Source: Candidatus Saccharimonadota bacterium (GTDB lineage Bacteria > Patescibacteriota > Saccharimonadia > Saccharimonadales > Saccharimonadaceae). Taken from it: a DNA stretch of 32,536 nt. The notes below the pieces were generated by a model. That model was given only the letters and a program-made list of their open reading frames with translations, was not told where the DNA came from and made no database searches. Each line of letters begins with the position of its first letter. Position 1 is the stretch's first letter. Position numbers and translations under genes: made by a program. The stretch covers positions 1-32,536 of the forward strand of contig DAIDJW010000001.1 in NCBI GenBank assembly GCA_027451185.1. Direction: 5' to 3'. Shown here piece by piece: positions 6,713-22,930 of the stretch.

Positions 6713-6753
6713 TCAGTAGACATCGCCTTGCTTATGGTTTATATTAATAATTA

Positions 6754-8823
6754 ATGAGAAGACGTGGCTTCACCCTGGTCGAGTTGCTGATTGTTATTTC
6801 TGTGATCGGCATTTTAACGACCGTCGCAGCCATTAGTTATTCGGTTGTTCAACGTAATTCGCGCGACACTGTTCGCGCCGCGCAACTAGCAACCATCGAT
6901 AATGCGCTTGAAGATTATTATCAAAAAAACGGCGAATATCCACCAGCGCGTAATATTGTTAATAGTTATAGCAGCAACACCGCCCAATCGGTCGCCAACT
7001 TATTGGGTATTAACGCCTCAAACCTCGATCTGCCAGGCTGCCCAACCGGCGTAAATCCATTCATTAGTTCACCGACTAATGCTACGACTTGCACAATCGT
7101 TTACCAGCCGTCGTCGAATATCAATAACACCACTTGCGAAACTGCTACCAACGGTGGTTGTGATTCGTTTGTGTTGACTTATTCTAAAGAAAGTGGCCAG
7201 ACAGTAGCTATCAATAGTCGACGCTCTGGCCGACCGGAAGGCGCCGTAGCCGACGCACCACCGGCGCCAACTGTCACGGTTAGCGGTAGCGGCACAACCG
7301 CCACCGCCCAGTCGTCGGTTGCCCAGTGCGGCAGTGCCACAACACCTAAATATTCATTTAATTACCGTCCAAGCGGTGGGGCGTGGGGCAGCTGGACTAT
7401 TTTTCAGGCCAACCCCAGTTATTCTTATGGCGGCTTAACCGTCGGCAGTAATTATGGTTTTGAGGTTGAAGCCCGTTGCGATAATGGCGCCTACATCGGC
7501 AACCTTAGCAACCCAAGCGCCGAGGTTATCTATCAAGTGCCGATACCAGCGCCGACAGCAACGACAGTTACAACAAGCGCCGAAACAAGTACCGGCGTAG
7601 CCTTTTCGTGGCCAGCTCAACAATACGCCACCAGTTATAATTATCAATACCGCATCAATGGCGGCGCCTGGTCATCTAACCAGTCAACTACTAGCACGGC
7701 CGCAACAATTAGTAGCTCTAATGGCGCCCATGTTGAACTACAAGCTCAAGCGGTTAACCCAACCGGTACATCTGGCTGGTCGAACATTGCCAGCGGCTAC
7801 TTACTGCCGGCGGCCCCGACAGCATCGTACACATCCGTCACCACTACAACCATGGTCTTCAATTGGACGACCGTCACCGGGGCAACTCGTTACGAATTTC
7901 AGTATCGAGTCAATAGCGGCGCCTGGTCGGGTACGGTTAACGACGGCGCGTCAACGACCTGGACGGCCGGACCGACTACACCCGGTACAAGAATTGAAAT
8001 CCAGGTACATGCCATTAACAGCGACGGTAATGCTGGACCATGGTCGACCGTCGTCGGTACAACCCTAGGTATCGGAACGCCTGCCTGGAACGCTTGGGGT
8101 CGCACCGATACCTTTCCAACTTGGACAACTTGGGTATACAACAACAGCGGTGCGTCGCTGTGCGGTGGCGCAAGTATCTATTCGTCATTCCACGATGGTG
8201 TTGTTAACTCATTCTGGAATGGCTGGGGCGCCTTTGGTAGCAACGGCGGTAGTTCAGAAACGCTGCATTATGGATCATACATCGCCAGCTACTACACAAC
8301 CTTACAAACTGAAATTCAAGGCTACTGTCGTAACGACGCCACCGGCGTGCAGTCGCCAACCATTAGTAGCGGCGTCAGCACGACGACACACGCCCAACCA
8401 AATGTTGTGCTGTCGGGGCCCGTGGTGTGCGCCGGCACATATTCGGGGCGTAGCGCTTTCCAAATAAGGTTACAGGTCCAAGAAACTAGCTATAACCTTG
8501 ACGCCGACCAAAGTAATGTTCACTGGTACTTATACCGATATGCCGCCGCATCTGGCTGGCAGACATACGACCAAACTAAAACCTGGCCATGGTCGGTTAG
8601 TGTCAACGGGTCTGGTTGGTCGGGTAGTAGTAACTCTGGCCGCTGGCGATATTCGGCTAGCGTTGTTGGCGATACCGAAGGAATCGCTTCGGGTGACGTT
8701 ACGGTTACCCACGACGGCAACGGTAACGCCACGATTGGTTTCTCGGGGTCAGATGGACCGGGCAGTTCCATTTTCGGCAGCGCATCGTGTTCTGGCGCCT
8801 ATGGTTTATCTAAATTACGCTAA
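6754..8823 (+). CDS. Large type IV pilin-like protein (689 aa) with three tandem Fn3-like modules and a C-terminal domain resembling phage tail / DUF859-type proteins.
   Basis: MRRRG|FTLVELLIVISVIGIL prepilin motif. Three repeats of about 90 aa each carry Y-x-F/Y-x-YR-x-xGGAW (YSFNYRPSGGAWGSW, YNYQYRINGGAWSS, YEFQYRVNSGAWSG). C-terminus: SYNLDADQSNVHWYLYRY...WSVSVNGSGWSGS...GDVTVTHDGNGNATIGFSGS. Confidence 0.85.
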   Translation: MRRRGFTLVELLIVISVIGILTTVAAISYSVVQRNSRDTVRAAQLATIDNALEDYYQKNGEYPPARNIVNSYSSNTAQSVANLLGINASNLDLPGCPTGVNPFISSPTNATTCTIVYQPSSNINNTTCETATNGGCDSFVLTYSKESGQTVAINSRRSGRPEGAVADAPPAPTVTVSGSGTTATAQSSVAQCGSATTPKYSFNYRPSGGAWGSWTIFQANPSYSYGGLTVGSNYGFEVEARCDNGAYIGNLSNPSAEVIYQVPIPAPTATTVTTSAETSTGVAFSWPAQQYATSYNYQYRINGGAWSSNQSTTSTAATISSSNGAHVELQAQAVNPTGTSGWSNIASGYLLPAAPTASYTSVTTTTMVFNWTTVTGATRYEFQYRVNSGAWSGTVNDGASTTWTAGPTTPGTRIEIQVHAINSDGNAGPWSTVVGTTLGIGTPAWNAWGRTDTFPTWTTWVYNNSGASLCGGASIYSSFHDGVVNSFWNGWGAFGSNGGSSETLHYGSYIASYYTTLQTEIQGYCRNDATGVQSPTISSGVSTTTHAQPNVVLSGPVVCAGTYSGRSAFQIRLQVQETSYNLDADQSNVHWYLYRYAAASGWQTYDQTKTWPWSVSVNGSGWSGSSNSGRWRYSASVVGDTEGIASGDVTVTHDGNGNATIGFSGSDGPGSSIFGSASCSGAYGLSKLR

Positions 8824-12645: not shown

Positions 12646-12665
12646 TTGTGACTACCGTCTAACTA

Positions 12666-12694
12666 TTGACAATAGATTAGGTTTCGGCTATAGT
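12666..12694 (+). promoter_or_regulatory. Consensus-like sigma70 promoter immediately after the helicase stop.
   Basis: TTGACA (12666..12671), 17-nt spacer, TATAGT (12689..12694). Confidence 0.6.
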
Positions 12695-12842
12695 TATACA
12701 GTTGATTTGAGGTTGTGAAACGTTGATAGCAAGTTTTTGGTATCCACATTTCACAATCTCGTCAGCACCTTGACAGAGATAGTGATAAGGTGGCTTGCCG
12801 CGAAATAACCCGCCCCCCCTGCGGGCAGTAACGACGAGTCTA

Positions 12843-12882
12843 GGCCTCGCCGTGGTTATCAACCAATAACCACGGCGAGGCC
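12843..12882 (+). repeat. Perfect 17-bp inverted repeat with a 6-nt loop (GC-rich hairpin).
   Basis: ggcctcgccgtggttat (12843..12859), caacca, ataaccacggcgaggcc (12866..12882). No U-tract follows. Confidence 0.9.
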
Positions 12883-12891
12883 GTCCAAGCA

Positions 12892-12954
12892 GGTCGTTCA
12901 TCGAATTAGCCGGGCCAAGACAATGATGTCTCCGCTATGATTCAATGAACGACC
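12892..12954 (+). repeat. 15-bp inverted repeat (1 mismatch) with a 33-nt spacer.
   Basis: ggtcgttcatcgaat (12892..12906) against attcaatgaacgacc (12940..12954). Confidence 0.8.
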
Positions 12955-12998
12955 GACTCATTCGAGCAACTTCAACTCCCCGGAAGGGGGTGAATAGT

Positions 12999-13154
12999 TT
13001 GTTCAAGTCGGAAGACGAGAAGCGCCGGGAGGCTGCCATCAAAGCCGAGCGCGTCTGCCCGGAGTGCAAGGGCACCGGTACCGTTGGCATCGGTGGACGT
13101 GGCTCGCTTTCGTCGTCGGTCTGTGGCACCTGCCACGGCACCGGGATGAAGTAG
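12999..13154 (+). CDS. Miniprotein (about 51 aa) with two DnaJ-type CxxCxGxG zinc-finger motifs and GC3-rich codons.
   Basis: CPECKGTG and CGTCHGTG. I prefer the TTG start at 12999, which has GGAAGGGGGTG ending 7 nt upstream. The track start at 12945 lies inside the hairpin arm and has no SD. Confidence 0.5.
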   Translation: MFKSEDEKRREAAIKAERVCPECKGTGTVGIGGRGSLSSSVCGTCHGTGMK

Positions 13155-13171
13155 CCTCGGCTGCTACAACT

Positions 13172-13207
13172 TGATGCGGGGCGCCCAATGACGTGCGCCC
13201 CGCATCA
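13172..13207 (+). terminator. 13-bp perfect GC-rich hairpin downstream of the zinc-finger ORF, with no U-tract.
   Basis: tgatgcggggcgc (13172..13184), 10-nt loop, gcgccccgcatca (13195..13207). Confidence 0.45.
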
Positions 13208-13306
13208 TGCCAATATTGACCGCTGCAGACAGTCACTATCTCTGTCCGCTTCACAGTTTTCATAAACTAGTTTTGTGGACAGTGTGAAACGTTTAAACTA
13301 ATAGAT

Positions 13307-14356
13307 ATGCAAAATTTTTGGCAAGATTTACCACGTCCGTTTTTTGCGCTGGCACCCATGGAGGCGGTGACGGACGTCGTTTTTCGCCATGTCGTGGCCG
13401 CCGCCGGCAAGCCGGATATTTTCTTTACCGAATTTACCAACGCCGCTAGTTACTTTAGCGAAAAAGGTATCGAAAGCACCCGTGGACGACTGGCTTTTAC
13501 GGCCGATGAACAACCAATGGTTGCTCAAATATGGGGCAATAACCCAGAACATTTTGCTTTTATGGCCAAAGGTTTGGCGACGCAGGGTTTTGCCGGCATC
13601 GATATTAACACTGGCTGTCCGGATAAATCAGTTATTAAACAGGGTAGTGGTAGCGCCTTGATTGGTGATTATGAATTGACCGCCAAACTTATTGCCGCTG
13701 CCAAAGAAGGCGGTTTACCGGTTAGCGTTAAAACCCGCTTGGGTAAATTTAAAATTGATGAATACCGCGAGTGGCTAAAGTTTCTACTCGAGCAAGATAT
13801 CGTCAATTTAACGATCCACCTGCGCACCCGCAAGGAAATGAGCAAGGTGCCGGCGCACTACGAGCTAATCACCGACATTGTTAAACTGCGCGATGAAGTA
13901 GCCCCGCAAACACTAATTACAATCAATGGCGATATCAAAGACCGCAAGCATGGCGAGAAATTAGCCCAACAATATGGTGTCGATGGCATCATGATTGGCC
14001 GCGGCATCTTTAGTAATCCATTCGCTTTTGCCAAAAACGAGCCTGGCTCAGACTGTTCAGGACAGGCTTCGCGCCGGGTCTCGAACGGGGCCCCGGCGCC
14101 CGTCGAAACTCGGGCTGCAGATTGTCCTTCGCAGCCCGACCCAGGCTCGGTCGACAAACGTCAAGAATTATTAAAGTTATTAAATCTTCATTTAGATTTG
14201 TTTGATAAATACTCGCCCGAACTGGAGCCGCGGCGCTTTGACCCGCTCAAACGGTTTTTTAAGATTTATGTTCGCGATTTCGCCGGTGCTTCAGAGCTAC
14301 GCGAGAGGCTAATGCACACCAAAAGTACCGATGAGGTTCGCCAGTTAATAAACTAG
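13307..14356 (+). CDS. dus: tRNA-dihydrouridine synthase (Dus family) carrying an in-frame GC-rich insertion of about 37 aa.
   Basis: [26 protein letters not shown] (catalytic Cys region), [19 protein letters not shown] lies 7 nt upstream of the ATG and there is no SD. Confidence 0.9.
14039..14148. mobile_element. 110-bp GC-rich imperfect palindrome inserted in frame in dus. Candidate RPE/MITE-like palindromic element.
   Basis: 8-bp perfect termini GAGCCTGG / CCAGGCTC. Folding position i on 111-i gives 37 Watson-Crick plus 4 G-T pairs out of 55 (hand count). It encodes [37 protein letters not shown] in dus and a similar peptide on the opposite strand. Confidence 0.55.
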
Positions 14357-20893: not shown

Positions 20894-22930
20894 CTACCAG
20901 TACGGTCGGATACTCTGTGATAGCTGCACATTATCCCAGTAAACCGTATCTGAAGGGCTACTTGAACCGTCATATAGGCGTACATCCATGCCAGTGGCAC
21001 CATCGGGAACGGTAAAGGTCATTGTTAACCGATAGGTACCTGGTACCGGGGGAGCCAAACTTGTTGCTCCAACCGAACTGCTCCATGTAGCCACGATACC
21101 ATAAGGTCGACCGGGCCATAGGGTACCTATCGGTGCTGTTGGGATATGCACCGTGGCTGTCACAGTATACGTATAACCAGCCACTATCGGTGTCGTTGGA
21201 ATAATAAAAGCAAATGAATCCGAGCTGGCCCCATTTGGCGTAATCAACAATGAATGAGTACCAGTATCGGCCCAAGCGGTACTTTGACTGAGTGTCGAAT
21301 TCGCGCCGGTGTAGCCATAGATACCGCCCTCAAAATCACTGTTTTGGGTCATATTGGCAACCGTGTCGTTGGTTGCCGGCAAACCATCTGGCACATAGGT
21401 TGGGTCATACACCTGTAGGTTAAGCGCTGTCAGCGAGCCGGCCGCTGTCCAGGTTTGGACGCTCTGCCAACTGAGCCCACTAACAGTAATCCGCGTACCA
21501 GCTGCTACGGTACCGTATTGATTAGTACTTGACGAAGCATATTTGGCACTGAATAAAAACGCCGAGTAACCAGCAGCGCCATTTACTAAGATAACGCCGA
21601 AACGGTGAGTACCCGGGCCGACTGTTACGGTCGCAGACGTGTCGGCTCCGTAACTAACTGCGGTCCCAACCTGATTGCCATCAAGGTAGACATAACATAA
21701 ATCGTCACAGGCTGTATAATACGTAACCTGAGTCGAGGCGTTAGTAGTCGTGAACGACTGTCTGTCTAGCAGGTAGGTCCCGGAGTTTGCCGGGGCACCG
21801 CCTGAGTTACCGCCCGGCGCCGTAATCCAATCGGCTGCCGCATCACCGCCACCGGATGGCCAGGATGTCATCGCTCCCCATATACCTACAGGCGTCGCAG
21901 CACTATAGTTACCGATATCAACCGCCGTGAACCAACTAGACGCGCCTGGAACTTGCGCTCGATAGTCGGAAAAATTCAAAAGATCGCCAGTCTTAACGCG
22001 CCAGCTGGTATCGGTTGTAACCAAAGGTGCACTAGCACCGTTTAAAGTCAAGGCAGCAATCAGGCTAGTGCCGTTCGGCGAATAGTTATTATTTATGACA
22101 TTAAACAGCATGCTATGGCACCCGGCAGTTAAGCTGACGTTGGCCGTCTCGGTTACATCCCAGCCGCGGCTATAGTCAACGGCTCTAGAATCGATAATCT
22201 TATTGCCGTCCACAAAGGCGGCCAACCGGTCATCTCCCGCGGCTTGAAGGATATAAATTCCAGCTGTCGTAACATTAAAATCTTTGCGGTACCAATAGCT
22301 GCCCGGGGGTAAGTTAGTATTAGCTAGCGATATTTGCTGGGCCCCAGTACCGCTAGGGAAAGAGCCCGACAGAGCAAGATTGTAAGCTACCGTATTTTGC
22401 CAACCGGGCGTATCCTGCAGGGTTGTCGTACAGTTACTGGCATAGCGCAGCGACTCGTTGCGAACATAGCTGCGCCATGGTATGCCGTTACTAGTACGGA
22501 GCAATGAGGTAGTACCGGTCGACGATATCTGCATCATGTCGCCGCCGGCGGTCTGCACCGGCGAACCAACCGAAAAAGTTGTATGCAGACTACTATTAAC
22601 CGCTACCCAGCATCTTGGGTCGGTTGAGCTTACGGCGCAGCTTGTCGTGACATTACCAGAGCAGTCGGTGTTAGGCATTAATGGGTTAGCACCCCATGTC
22701 ACTTGGTTGTTATTGGCAGCCATACAGGCTTGGGCGTATGATATACCGGCCTCGGCCGCTGTCTGAGCGAGCTTGCTATAATACTGGTTTGTCAGGGCAT
22801 TGCGCGTAATGTCGACACTCTGCACGGCCACCGCCAAAACTGACATCATCACCAAGGAAACAATAATAACCGTCGGCAAAGCAAAGCCTTTTTTGAACAG
22901 TTGATACCTATCTGTGATTGTATTCGCCAT
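20894..22930 (-). CDS. PilX-like pseudopilin N-terminus fused to a large adhesin-like region: two PA14-like segments and a C-terminal CBM4_9-like carbohydrate-binding module.
   Basis: KKG|FALPTVIIVSLVMMSVLAVAV (no Glu5). GSYWYRKDFNVTTAGIYILQAAGDDRLAAFVDGNKIID and GTYLLDRQSF...CDDLCYVYLDGNQVG. C-terminus NSDFEGGIYGYTG...GTHSLLI...VYWDNVQLS. Confidence 0.8.
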   Translation of the reverse strand: MANTITDRYQLFKKGFALPTVIIVSLVMMSVLAVAVQSVDITRNALTNQYYSKLAQTAAEAGISYAQACMAANNNQVTWGANPLMPNTDCSGNVTTSCAVSSTDPRCWVAVNSSLHTTFSVGSPVQTAGGDMMQISSTGTTSLLRTSNGIPWRSYVRNESLRYASNCTTTLQDTPGWQNTVAYNLALSGSFPSGTGAQQISLANTNLPPGSYWYRKDFNVTTAGIYILQAAGDDRLAAFVDGNKIIDSRAVDYSRGWDVTETANVSLTAGCHSMLFNVINNNYSPNGTSLIAALTLNGASAPLVTTDTSWRVKTGDLLNFSDYRAQVPGASSWFTAVDIGNYSAATPVGIWGAMTSWPSGGGDAAADWITAPGGNSGGAPANSGTYLLDRQSFTTTNASTQVTYYTACDDLCYVYLDGNQVGTAVSYGADTSATVTVGPGTHRFGVILVNGAAGYSAFLFSAKYASSSTNQYGTVAAGTRITVSGLSWQSVQTWTAAGSLTALNLQVYDPTYVPDGLPATNDTVANMTQNSDFEGGIYGYTGANSTLSQSTAWADTGTHSLLITPNGASSDSFAFIIPTTPIVAGYTYTVTATVHIPTAPIGTLWPGRPYGIVATWSSSVGATSLAPPVPGTYRLTMTFTVPDGATGMDVRLYDGSSSPSDTVYWDNVQLSQSIRPYW

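Follow-up and report, generated by a model that had tools for sequence, protein, structure and literature searches.

A palindrome within a Saccharibacteria dus gene as one copy of a dispersed, hairpin-forming repeat family

The tRNA-dihydrouridine synthase (Dus) gene encoded in the 32,536-nucleotide stretch of Saccharibacteria DNA analysed here (the window) contains a 110-bp imperfect palindrome, and this palindrome is one copy of a previously undescribed palindromic repeat family of Saccharibacteria. The segment very probably belongs to a non-autonomous, hairpin-forming family of about 85-130 bp that is specific to Saccharimonadia and whose copies lie between genes or are tolerated within them as in-frame loops of 30-45 residues. 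The intragenic copies appear to be translated as hydrophilic, disordered loops.

The palindrome in the Dus linker

The palindrome occupies positions 14039-14148 (GAGCCTGG...CCAGGCTC) and begins at codon 245 of the 349-aa open reading frame (ORF) in phase 0, in agreement with a first-pass annotation that was made from the sequence alone and had placed it in frame within dus. Setting each base i against base 111-i without gaps, we counted 37 Watson-Crick, 4 G-T, 3 A-C and 11 other combinations among the 55 positions, a recount identical to the 37 Watson-Crick and 4 G-T pairs reported in that annotation. Its description of the segment as GC-rich and open on both strands holds as well: GC content is 0.69 at 14050-14149 compared with a window mean of 0.50, and the reverse strand is open across the palindrome (ORF 13858-14157) and encodes a 37-residue peptide similar to the forward one. 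Folded as RNA, 14039-14148 reaches -59.2 kcal/mol (z = -4.1) for the + strand and -69.1 kcal/mol (z = -6.3) for the - strand, and a fold with DNA parameters gives z = -3.6; none of 200 dinucleotide-preserving shuffles matched the folding of the palindrome in any of these three tests.

The window protein was compared with its 120 closest Dus proteins, all from Saccharibacteria, and PF01207 was found on the window's Dus and on all its homologs. In 90 of the 120 orthologs the linker that holds the palindrome measures 3 residues, whereas the window has 37-38 extra residues there; about 25 of the 120 carry inserts of 23-97 residues at exactly the same site. The sites are empty in the two closest relatives (P0003 and P0004, 80-81% protein identity), which bears out the lineage specificity proposed earlier; at the DNA level, the dus sites of L116 and L117 are empty at ~80% nucleotide identity to the window. 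Aligned with empty dus sites, all 110 bp of the element stand out as inserted DNA, and no direct repeat flanks them. In an AlphaFold2 model of the window's Dus (60 homologs; mean predicted local distance difference test score, pLDDT, 84.6), the TIM barrel extends to about residue 236, residues 249-276 are coil with pLDDT <50 and the helical domain begins at residue 279. The insert is thus predicted to form a disordered loop between the two domains, consistent with the tolerated interdomain linker or surface loop suggested by the first-pass annotation.

The Dus inserts encode several seemingly unrelated peptide families, which are one DNA sequence read differently. The inserts of P0027 and P0063 match the window's reverse-strand peptide (SAARVSRGAGALAETR), the insert family AARVSRGAGALAETRSEA likewise matches it, and the family KHLQPE..PGP..PGAKP corresponds to the window's reverse strand in a second frame. 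When we compared the DNA of seven insert-bearing dus genes, every insert was a long hairpin. Five of the eight dus inserts (these seven and the window's) share a 56-nt core, consisting of CTGCARCCCRA, 32 variable bases and CCGGNGYGAAGCC, which runs along the dus direction in three inserts and in the opposite direction in the window and in L002. The window features are as follows.

13307-14356, + strand: tRNA-dihydrouridine synthase (Dus; PF01207), 349 aa, read through the element
14039-14148, no strand assigned: whole palindromic element, 110 bp, encoding Dus residues 245-281
14038-14149: element with the flanking C and G included, 112 bp
14065-14120, - strand: conserved 56-nt core, composed of CTGCAGCCCGAG, a 30-nt hairpin and CCCGGCGCGAAGCC (family pattern match)
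14109-14120, - strand: 5' core motif CTGCAGCCCGAG (alignment of 101 copies)
14079-14108, - strand: inner hairpin, variable in sequence and constant in pairing (covariation across 101 copies)
14065-14078, - strand: 3' core motif CCCGGCGCGAAGCC (alignment and covariation)
14039-14064, no strand assigned: outer arm, left in window coordinates (pairs with 14121-14148 in folds)
14121-14148, no strand assigned: outer arm, right in window coordinates (folds and family arm analysis)

Core-less hairpins were also seen at this site. The dus genes of L118 (P0002), L004, L005 and L007 have hairpin inserts of 114-288 nt at the window's position without the core, the one in L118 measuring 147 nt and folding at -62 kcal/mol, and the family covariance model described below had no match in the inserts of L004, L005 and L007. 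Either these inserts are copies that have decayed, or other palindromic families use this site as well. In the empty dus of DAIDKE01 (L117:3700-3790) a perfect 11-bp inverted repeat (TTTGCCAAAAG...CTTTTGGCAAA) brackets the linker, and its second arm encodes the extra residues LLAK; this repeat could be what a lost palindromic element left behind, or else a copy of the flank in inverted orientation.

Copies, core and arms of the repeat family

We derived a scan pattern from five dus inserts and matched it exactly against contigs of one genome per prokaryotic species. The scan returned 108 matches, of which 98 are true copies in 60 Saccharibacteria/Saccharimonadales species genomes, with at most seven copies per genome of roughly 0.9 Mb; the remaining matches, roughly 10 of the 108, lie in unrelated GC-rich taxa, have unrelated interiors and are near chance expectation. 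JGI metagenomes contributed at least 120 further stretches with the core pattern, bringing the total to more than 200 copies of one architecture across NCBI, ENA, JGI and Logan assemblies. The dispersed multi-copy unit that the first-pass annotation had postulated is therefore found, and rather than a single-copy segment present in all Dus orthologs we see a dispersed family and mostly empty Dus sites. No metagenome match was found for a 41-mer of the window core in which four positions were degenerate.

A covariance model (R1) built from 101 copies scored the window copy at 74.1 bits (E = 1e-24, 14051-14134, - strand) and, in ~0.8 Mb around known copies, recovered only three copies that fail the exact pattern. 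At the gathering score Rfam had no match in the window or in 15 loci with copies, the best match at E up to 10 being an unrelated small RNA (15.5 bits). [quoted passage not shown]

These data bear on two simple alternatives. The insert could be an in-place expansion of the Dus linker by duplication or slippage, unrelated to any repeat family, and the hypervariability of this linker, with its 23-97-residue inserts and some core-less hairpins, would agree with such an origin. The 56-nt core, however, is also present between genes and in no fewer than 13 other gene families, and the window copy reaches 74 bits on a model built from family copies, so that we consider local expansion refuted and its probability very small. 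The palindrome could also be a fold-back chimera produced in assembly. Palindromes can arise in assemblies, and the cluster of the window's Dus protein has this one member, from a single contig. Against this stand the more than 200 like-built copies in independent NCBI, ENA, JGI and Logan assemblies and the host ORFs, all of which are intact; an artefact is the least credible of all explanations weighed here, with a probability close to nil.

On the core strand, the successive parts of a copy are a 5' arm of ~25-33 nt, (A)CAT, CTGCAGCCCGAG, a hairpin of 27-32 nt, CCCGGAGCGAAGCC, GTT and a 3' arm, and the family ranges from about 85 to 130 bp overall. Ten of the 12 columns of the 5' core motif are identical in all 101 aligned copies, nine of the columns having been fixed and two limited to G/A by the scan pattern, so that the first G of GAG is the sole invariant column that was free to vary. 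Compensatory double changes were found in 11 of the 17 predicted core pairs among the 101 copies, for several pairs in 20-49 sequences. Covariation links the sixth base of CTGCAG to the C of GCGAAGCC, as G:C in 83 copies and as A:U (A:T) in 15. A d(GCGAAGC) mini-hairpin was considered for the 3' motif and rejected because the C of the motif covaries with the G of CTGCAG, and a kink-turn was rejected upon inspection of the fold, in which the internal-loop strand with the three-base loop lacks the required GA step.

The arms follow a different rule from the core: they are locus-specific and self-complementary. Among the matches listed, 80% of 222 copies have arms that are self-complementary at 3-33 nt from the core, with a median pairing score of 12 within a copy compared with 4.5 against the arm of another locus, and pairing past 33 nt from the core persists in 7% of copies. 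As few copies pair beyond this distance, the paired unit comprises ~110-125 bp, which is the size of the window copy. An exception is a subfamily of 25 copies with common arms (GAGCCGCTCGCTACC... / ...GGTAGCGAAAAGGCGAAC) in five host genes and many genomes. RNase HII alleles, which share one site and one orientation, have arms that diverged past recognition and are still paired, and their core motifs are unchanged.

In seven leucyl-tRNA synthetase (LeuRS) alleles a conserved strand of the protein (EIEF/EISF) is encoded by the 5' arm, of which the 3' arm is the reverse complement. In L104, for example, EIEFL is encoded by the 5' arm GAAATAGAATTCTTAG, and the 3' arm reads CTAAGAATTCTATTTC. Host codons vary by genome (ATAGAGTTCATGA, ATTGAATTCTTGA, ATTTCATTTGTAC, ATTTCTTTCTTAC) and the 3' arm tracks each of them, while the core is found in either orientation among these host-codon-armed alleles. 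Plain perfect hairpins with stems of 14-21 bp are common in these genomes (98 in 0.9 Mb), and some intergenic copies could therefore have landed in existing hairpin loops; L011, with an A-tract before and a T-tract after the hairpin, is an example that resembles such a landing.

Host genes, strand behaviour and spread

Both in-frame and intergenic copies exist: among the copies listed, long intact ORFs hold 88 of 227 (~39%; 39 from the genome set, 45 from the metagenome set and four further dus loci), and the others are intergenic. According to Pfam, the 39 genome copies reside in genes for tRNA and rRNA enzymes (Dus, MnmA, TsaD, an S-adenosylmethionine (SAM) methyltransferase, LeuRS, CysRS and PrmC), for DNA enzymes (topoisomerase I (TopA), DnaX, an RNase HII-UPF0102 fusion, Fpg and TatD) and for a fused succinyl-CoA-ligase-like protein and an ABC-F protein, amounting to at least 14 host gene families. 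Conserved residues flanking the metagenome inserts point to the same genes among the matches listed. Across genomes each gene family has one site, at which the core faces either way and is read in various frames; topoisomerase I has at least two insertion sites. LeuRS orthologs with an empty site, 54 of 99, have a 10-residue beta-hairpin loop there (e.g. KVDGSDDIIT), which the element replaces, and inserts of more than 20 residues occur in about 12 of the 99. In the RNase HII-UPF0102 fusion the element sits in the interdomain linker.

At least five of the six frames of the family's DNA are used (LQPE..PGAKP, SAARVS..ETRSEA, GFAPG..TRAAD, TASLRVS..ESRVAD, RLRTG), and its conservation therefore lies at the nucleic-acid level. 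In every frame seen, Ser, Pro, Gly, Ala, Glu and Arg abound in the encoded peptides. Intragenic copies have 2.9 of six frames open compared with 1.6 in shuffles, and the core alone has 4.5 of six, so that the largely stop-free element survives more easily in frame. These observations also bear on a removal of the segment after transcription or translation, in the manner of an intron or intein. An mRNA hairpin of -59 to -69 kcal/mol is unusual and might suggest such processing; yet all 88 intragenic copies among those listed are in frame and stop-free, neither of which splicing needs. Moreover, both orientations within one gene are incompatible with a strand-specific RNA splicing signal, and as the peptide varies with frame and orientation there is no conserved intein-type sequence. 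We regard removal as highly improbable.

Several host loci have features of their own. RNase HII is fused to UPF0102 (YraN-like) in L054, L061, L088 and L096 and also in L154, L172, L176 and L236. The LeuRS proteins of L034:1682-4606 and L104:2102-5026 have an embedded NUDIX domain (PF00293, residues 398-519) after the editing domain, which is likewise present in several LeuRS homologs. L049, L099 (DATMTU01, 'Dongiaceae') and L053 (DATJIC01, 'Verrucomicrobiia') are true copies on contigs that are not binned as CPR; those of L049 and L053 sit in MnmA and SAM methyltransferase genes, which are hosts elsewhere in Saccharibacteria, and the three contigs are probably mis-binned. Pairs of copies in opposite orientation, 80-190 nt apart, were found at L085:5090-5316, L139:8972-9177 and L161:238-536, with both copies of the L085 pair inside tsaD, and may represent composite or nested insertions.

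Intragenic copies are oriented sense in about 24 and antisense in 12 cases in the genomes, and 25 of 45 are sense in the metagenomes (among the matches listed); between tandem genes, 25 copies are co-directional and 30 opposite among the copies listed. A preference for gene 3' ends in the genome sample (15 convergent vs 3 divergent) was lost in the larger sample (18 vs 16 among the copies listed) and was rejected. In five of 15 Rfam-scanned loci with intergenic copies an RNA gene lies roughly 60-250 nt from the core (L025:2816-3353, L047:222-535, L073:1871-2189, L018:4748-4934 and L023:6983-7174), the neighbours being transfer-messenger RNA (tmRNA), LOOT RNA (twice) and tRNA (twice).

We also compared the two strands of the element. 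A strand-specific RNA was rejected, given that fold energy does not differ between strands (59 vs 41 copies, p = 0.21) and that orientation is unrelated to transcription. G-T wobbles in the variable stem, on the other hand, amount to 491 on the core strand and 297 on its complement (p = 5e-12), a bias that base composition alone cannot produce since the arms are symmetric. The bias is present in intergenic copies (321 vs 167) and where the core strand is antisense to the host gene (79 vs 35), and absent where the core strand is the host sense strand (91 vs 95). It argues against a role in the host mRNA, and is suggestive of a strand-specific single-stranded state of the element or of a strand-specific mutation bias.

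Instead of being, or still being, a purely selfish repeat, the core could be a functional structured nucleic-acid module under cellular selection, such as a protein-binding site or a processing or termination signal, with the coding copies as tolerated by-products. Its motifs are constant in all recovered copies from 60 species-level genomes, though the scan required most positions, compensatory covariation in the core is strong, and orthologous RNase HII copies retain the core while their diverged arms still pair. The wobble bias toward one strand (491 vs 297 G-T) and the position of five of the 15 scanned intergenic-copy loci within about 250 nt of tmRNA, LOOT RNA or tRNA point in the same direction. 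However, the orientation counts given above are unbiased with respect to host or neighbour genes (about 24/12; 25/45; 25 vs 30), folding energy is equal between strands (p = 0.21), and the preference for gene 3' ends is unreliable (18 vs 16). There is only a handful of copies per genome and no match among Rfam families. Most orthologs of each host gene lack the element, which is therefore dispensable at every examined site. Taken together, we consider a cellular module unlikely.

The distribution of the copies is more readily explained by the tolerated repeat family proposed at the outset, and it is this distribution that suggests the terms 'selfish' and 'mobile'. Mean identity of the inner hairpin is 0.69 between different loci of the same genome, 0.57 for the same gene in different genomes and 0.49 for other pairs; the p-values of the differences (0.017 and 2e-5) are rough because pairs are not independent. 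This order would be expected either from recent spread within genomes or from gene conversion among copies. The window core is ~93% identical to the copy in topA of DAIDKE01 (L071), the genome that is the source of P0004 and in which the dus site is empty, its dus being 79% identical to the window's. In addition, the core was found flipped at one site in different genomes.

The mechanism that we favour would have the family spread or homogenise within genomes via a single-stranded hairpin intermediate, with a trans-acting enzyme recognising the core hairpin on the single strand. Template switching between the arms would keep them complementary and extend the palindrome into flanking host DNA, and the same switching would invert the core in place. 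Quasi-palindrome correction by template switching is a known mutational mechanism; alternatively, the complementarity of the arms may reflect selection for pairing. More tentatively, the family could constitute a distinct element class, in which only the asymmetric core of ~56 nt is heritable and recognised, the arms are copied inverted from adjacent host DNA, as the EIEF codons of LeuRS and their reverse complement would illustrate, and stay perfectly paired, the core flips and the copies are homogenised within a genome. If this possibility, to which we give less than even weight, were true, the class would act via a strand-specific single-stranded hairpin and remodel loops of essential enzymes in ultra-small CPR genomes.

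Several points weigh against a mobile repeat family. At the junctions of the dus insert and in the 25-copy subfamily we saw no target-site duplication, the exact ends of the element being uncertain; no solo ends, unpaired core halves or longer parent element were seen in 0.9 Mb around copies; and no candidate transposase emerged. Ordinary MITEs have conserved terminal inverted repeats, whereas the arms here differ from locus to locus. The conservation of the core motifs is partly built in, as the scan demanded a motif match; independent evidence is limited to three copies that fail the pattern in ~0.8 Mb around known copies. Occupied sites recur, in the same genes, across many genomes, and ancient insertion followed by vertical descent and gene conversion would explain this recurrence as well as repeated insertion. 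Lastly, the case for translation of the inserts comes from their intact frames.

Comparison with known palindromic repeats and other features of the window

The first-pass annotation had likened the palindrome to Rickettsia palindromic elements, and this interpretation stood: dispersal, in-frame hosts, empty sites and the predicted loop all support such behaviour. The annotation had recognised neither the conserved core nor the locus-specific arms, and three features go beyond its reading: arms that differ between loci yet are self-complementary, in LeuRS from host codons; the flipping of the core at one site; and a closer resemblance among copies of one genome than among orthologous copies. 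In the summary of PMC10969869 (Ogata et al. 2000, 2002), each family of Rickettsia palindromic elements is characterised by the conserved peptide that it encodes. By that account, both groups are palindromic, ~100-150 bp in size, dispersed, intergenic as well as in frame in unrelated housekeeping genes, translated (in the present family, as judged from intact frames), located at fold-tolerated loop sites of small reduced genomes and without known transposase (PMC10969869). Fold-compatible positions in our family are the Dus interdomain region (pLDDT <50), the RNase HII-UPF0102 linker and the 10-residue loop of LeuRS. In contrast to the Rickettsia elements as portrayed there, only the 56-nt core is family-wide and the arms are locus-specific (PMC10969869); furthermore, the host phylum is unrelated (Patescibacteria/CPR) and the Saccharibacteria DNA is read in at least five frames and in both orientations at one site. 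Compared by behaviour and host phylum, the family is thus an analogue of Rickettsia palindromic elements and not a member, because its hosts are Saccharibacteria.

With MITEs such as Correia, ERIC/IRU, RUP and SPRITE (PMC10969869) the family shares its shortness, non-coding origin, hairpin formation, multiple copies, similar size and occasional in-frame fusions. It differs from them in having no conserved terminal inverted repeats, and no target-site duplication or parent insertion sequence was found around copies.

REPs are extragenic, number hundreds per genome and have a GTAG-type motif; REP doublets form long hairpins, and REP/REPIN sequences are mobilised by RAYT (IS200/IS605-like Y1 transposases). 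A conserved short motif beside a covarying hairpin is common to REP/REPIN and the present family, as are strand-specific features that would fit a single-stranded DNA intermediate. The family differs in its few copies per genome, its intragenic share (~39% of the copies listed) and its core motifs CTGCAGCCCGAG and CCCGGAGCGAAGCC, which are not of GTAG type. RAYT genes were not searched for; the many intragenic copies and the different motif make REP/RAYT a poor fit.

Palindromic amphipathic repeat coding elements (PARCELs, PMC2996958), like the family, are palindromic coding repeats of bacteria with minimal genomes, and in both cases the two strands encode related peptides. PARCELs form tandem arrays within genes for repeat (surface) proteins, and the units they encode are amphipathic (PMC2996958). 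The Saccharibacteria copies, unlike these, are single, lie in cytoplasmic enzymes and encode low-complexity disordered loops.

An unrelated family in another reduced-genome, host-dependent lineage suggests that protein-coding palindromic repeats, regarded as a Rickettsia oddity, are a recurrent outcome of genome reduction. The family would account for many unexplained low-complexity insertions of 30-100 residues in CPR housekeeping proteins, which annotators can flag with the scan pattern and the covariance model. Locus-specific arms, flipped cores and within-genome homogenisation offer a natural experiment on how palindromes grow and persist in essential genes, and the conserved core could serve as bait for finding the protein that recognises it.

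Within the window, neither blastn nor the covariance model (filters off) found a second copy. The sole other window match of the model with E<1, at 6752-6803 on the - strand (15 bits, E = 0.005), is a false positive: the + strand encodes a prepilin-type N-terminus there (RRGFTLVELLIVISV, GFTLVELLIVI), the start of a 689-aa ORF at 6754-8823, and the likeness to the core motifs is coincidental. The GC-rich islands at 2545-2694, 7205-7350, 21750-21890 and 13003-13150 were tried as hairpins and rejected (z = -0.3 to -1.7). Upstream of dus, a gap of 660 bp (12646-13306) separates it from a UvrD-like helicase gene. This gap contains hairpins at 12709-12760, 12843-12882 (a perfect 17-bp stem) and 12892-12954 as well as a GC-rich ORF of 69 aa (12945-13154, + strand) with two CxxCxGxG motifs of the DnaJ zinc-finger type, and relatives have different small ORFs in this position.

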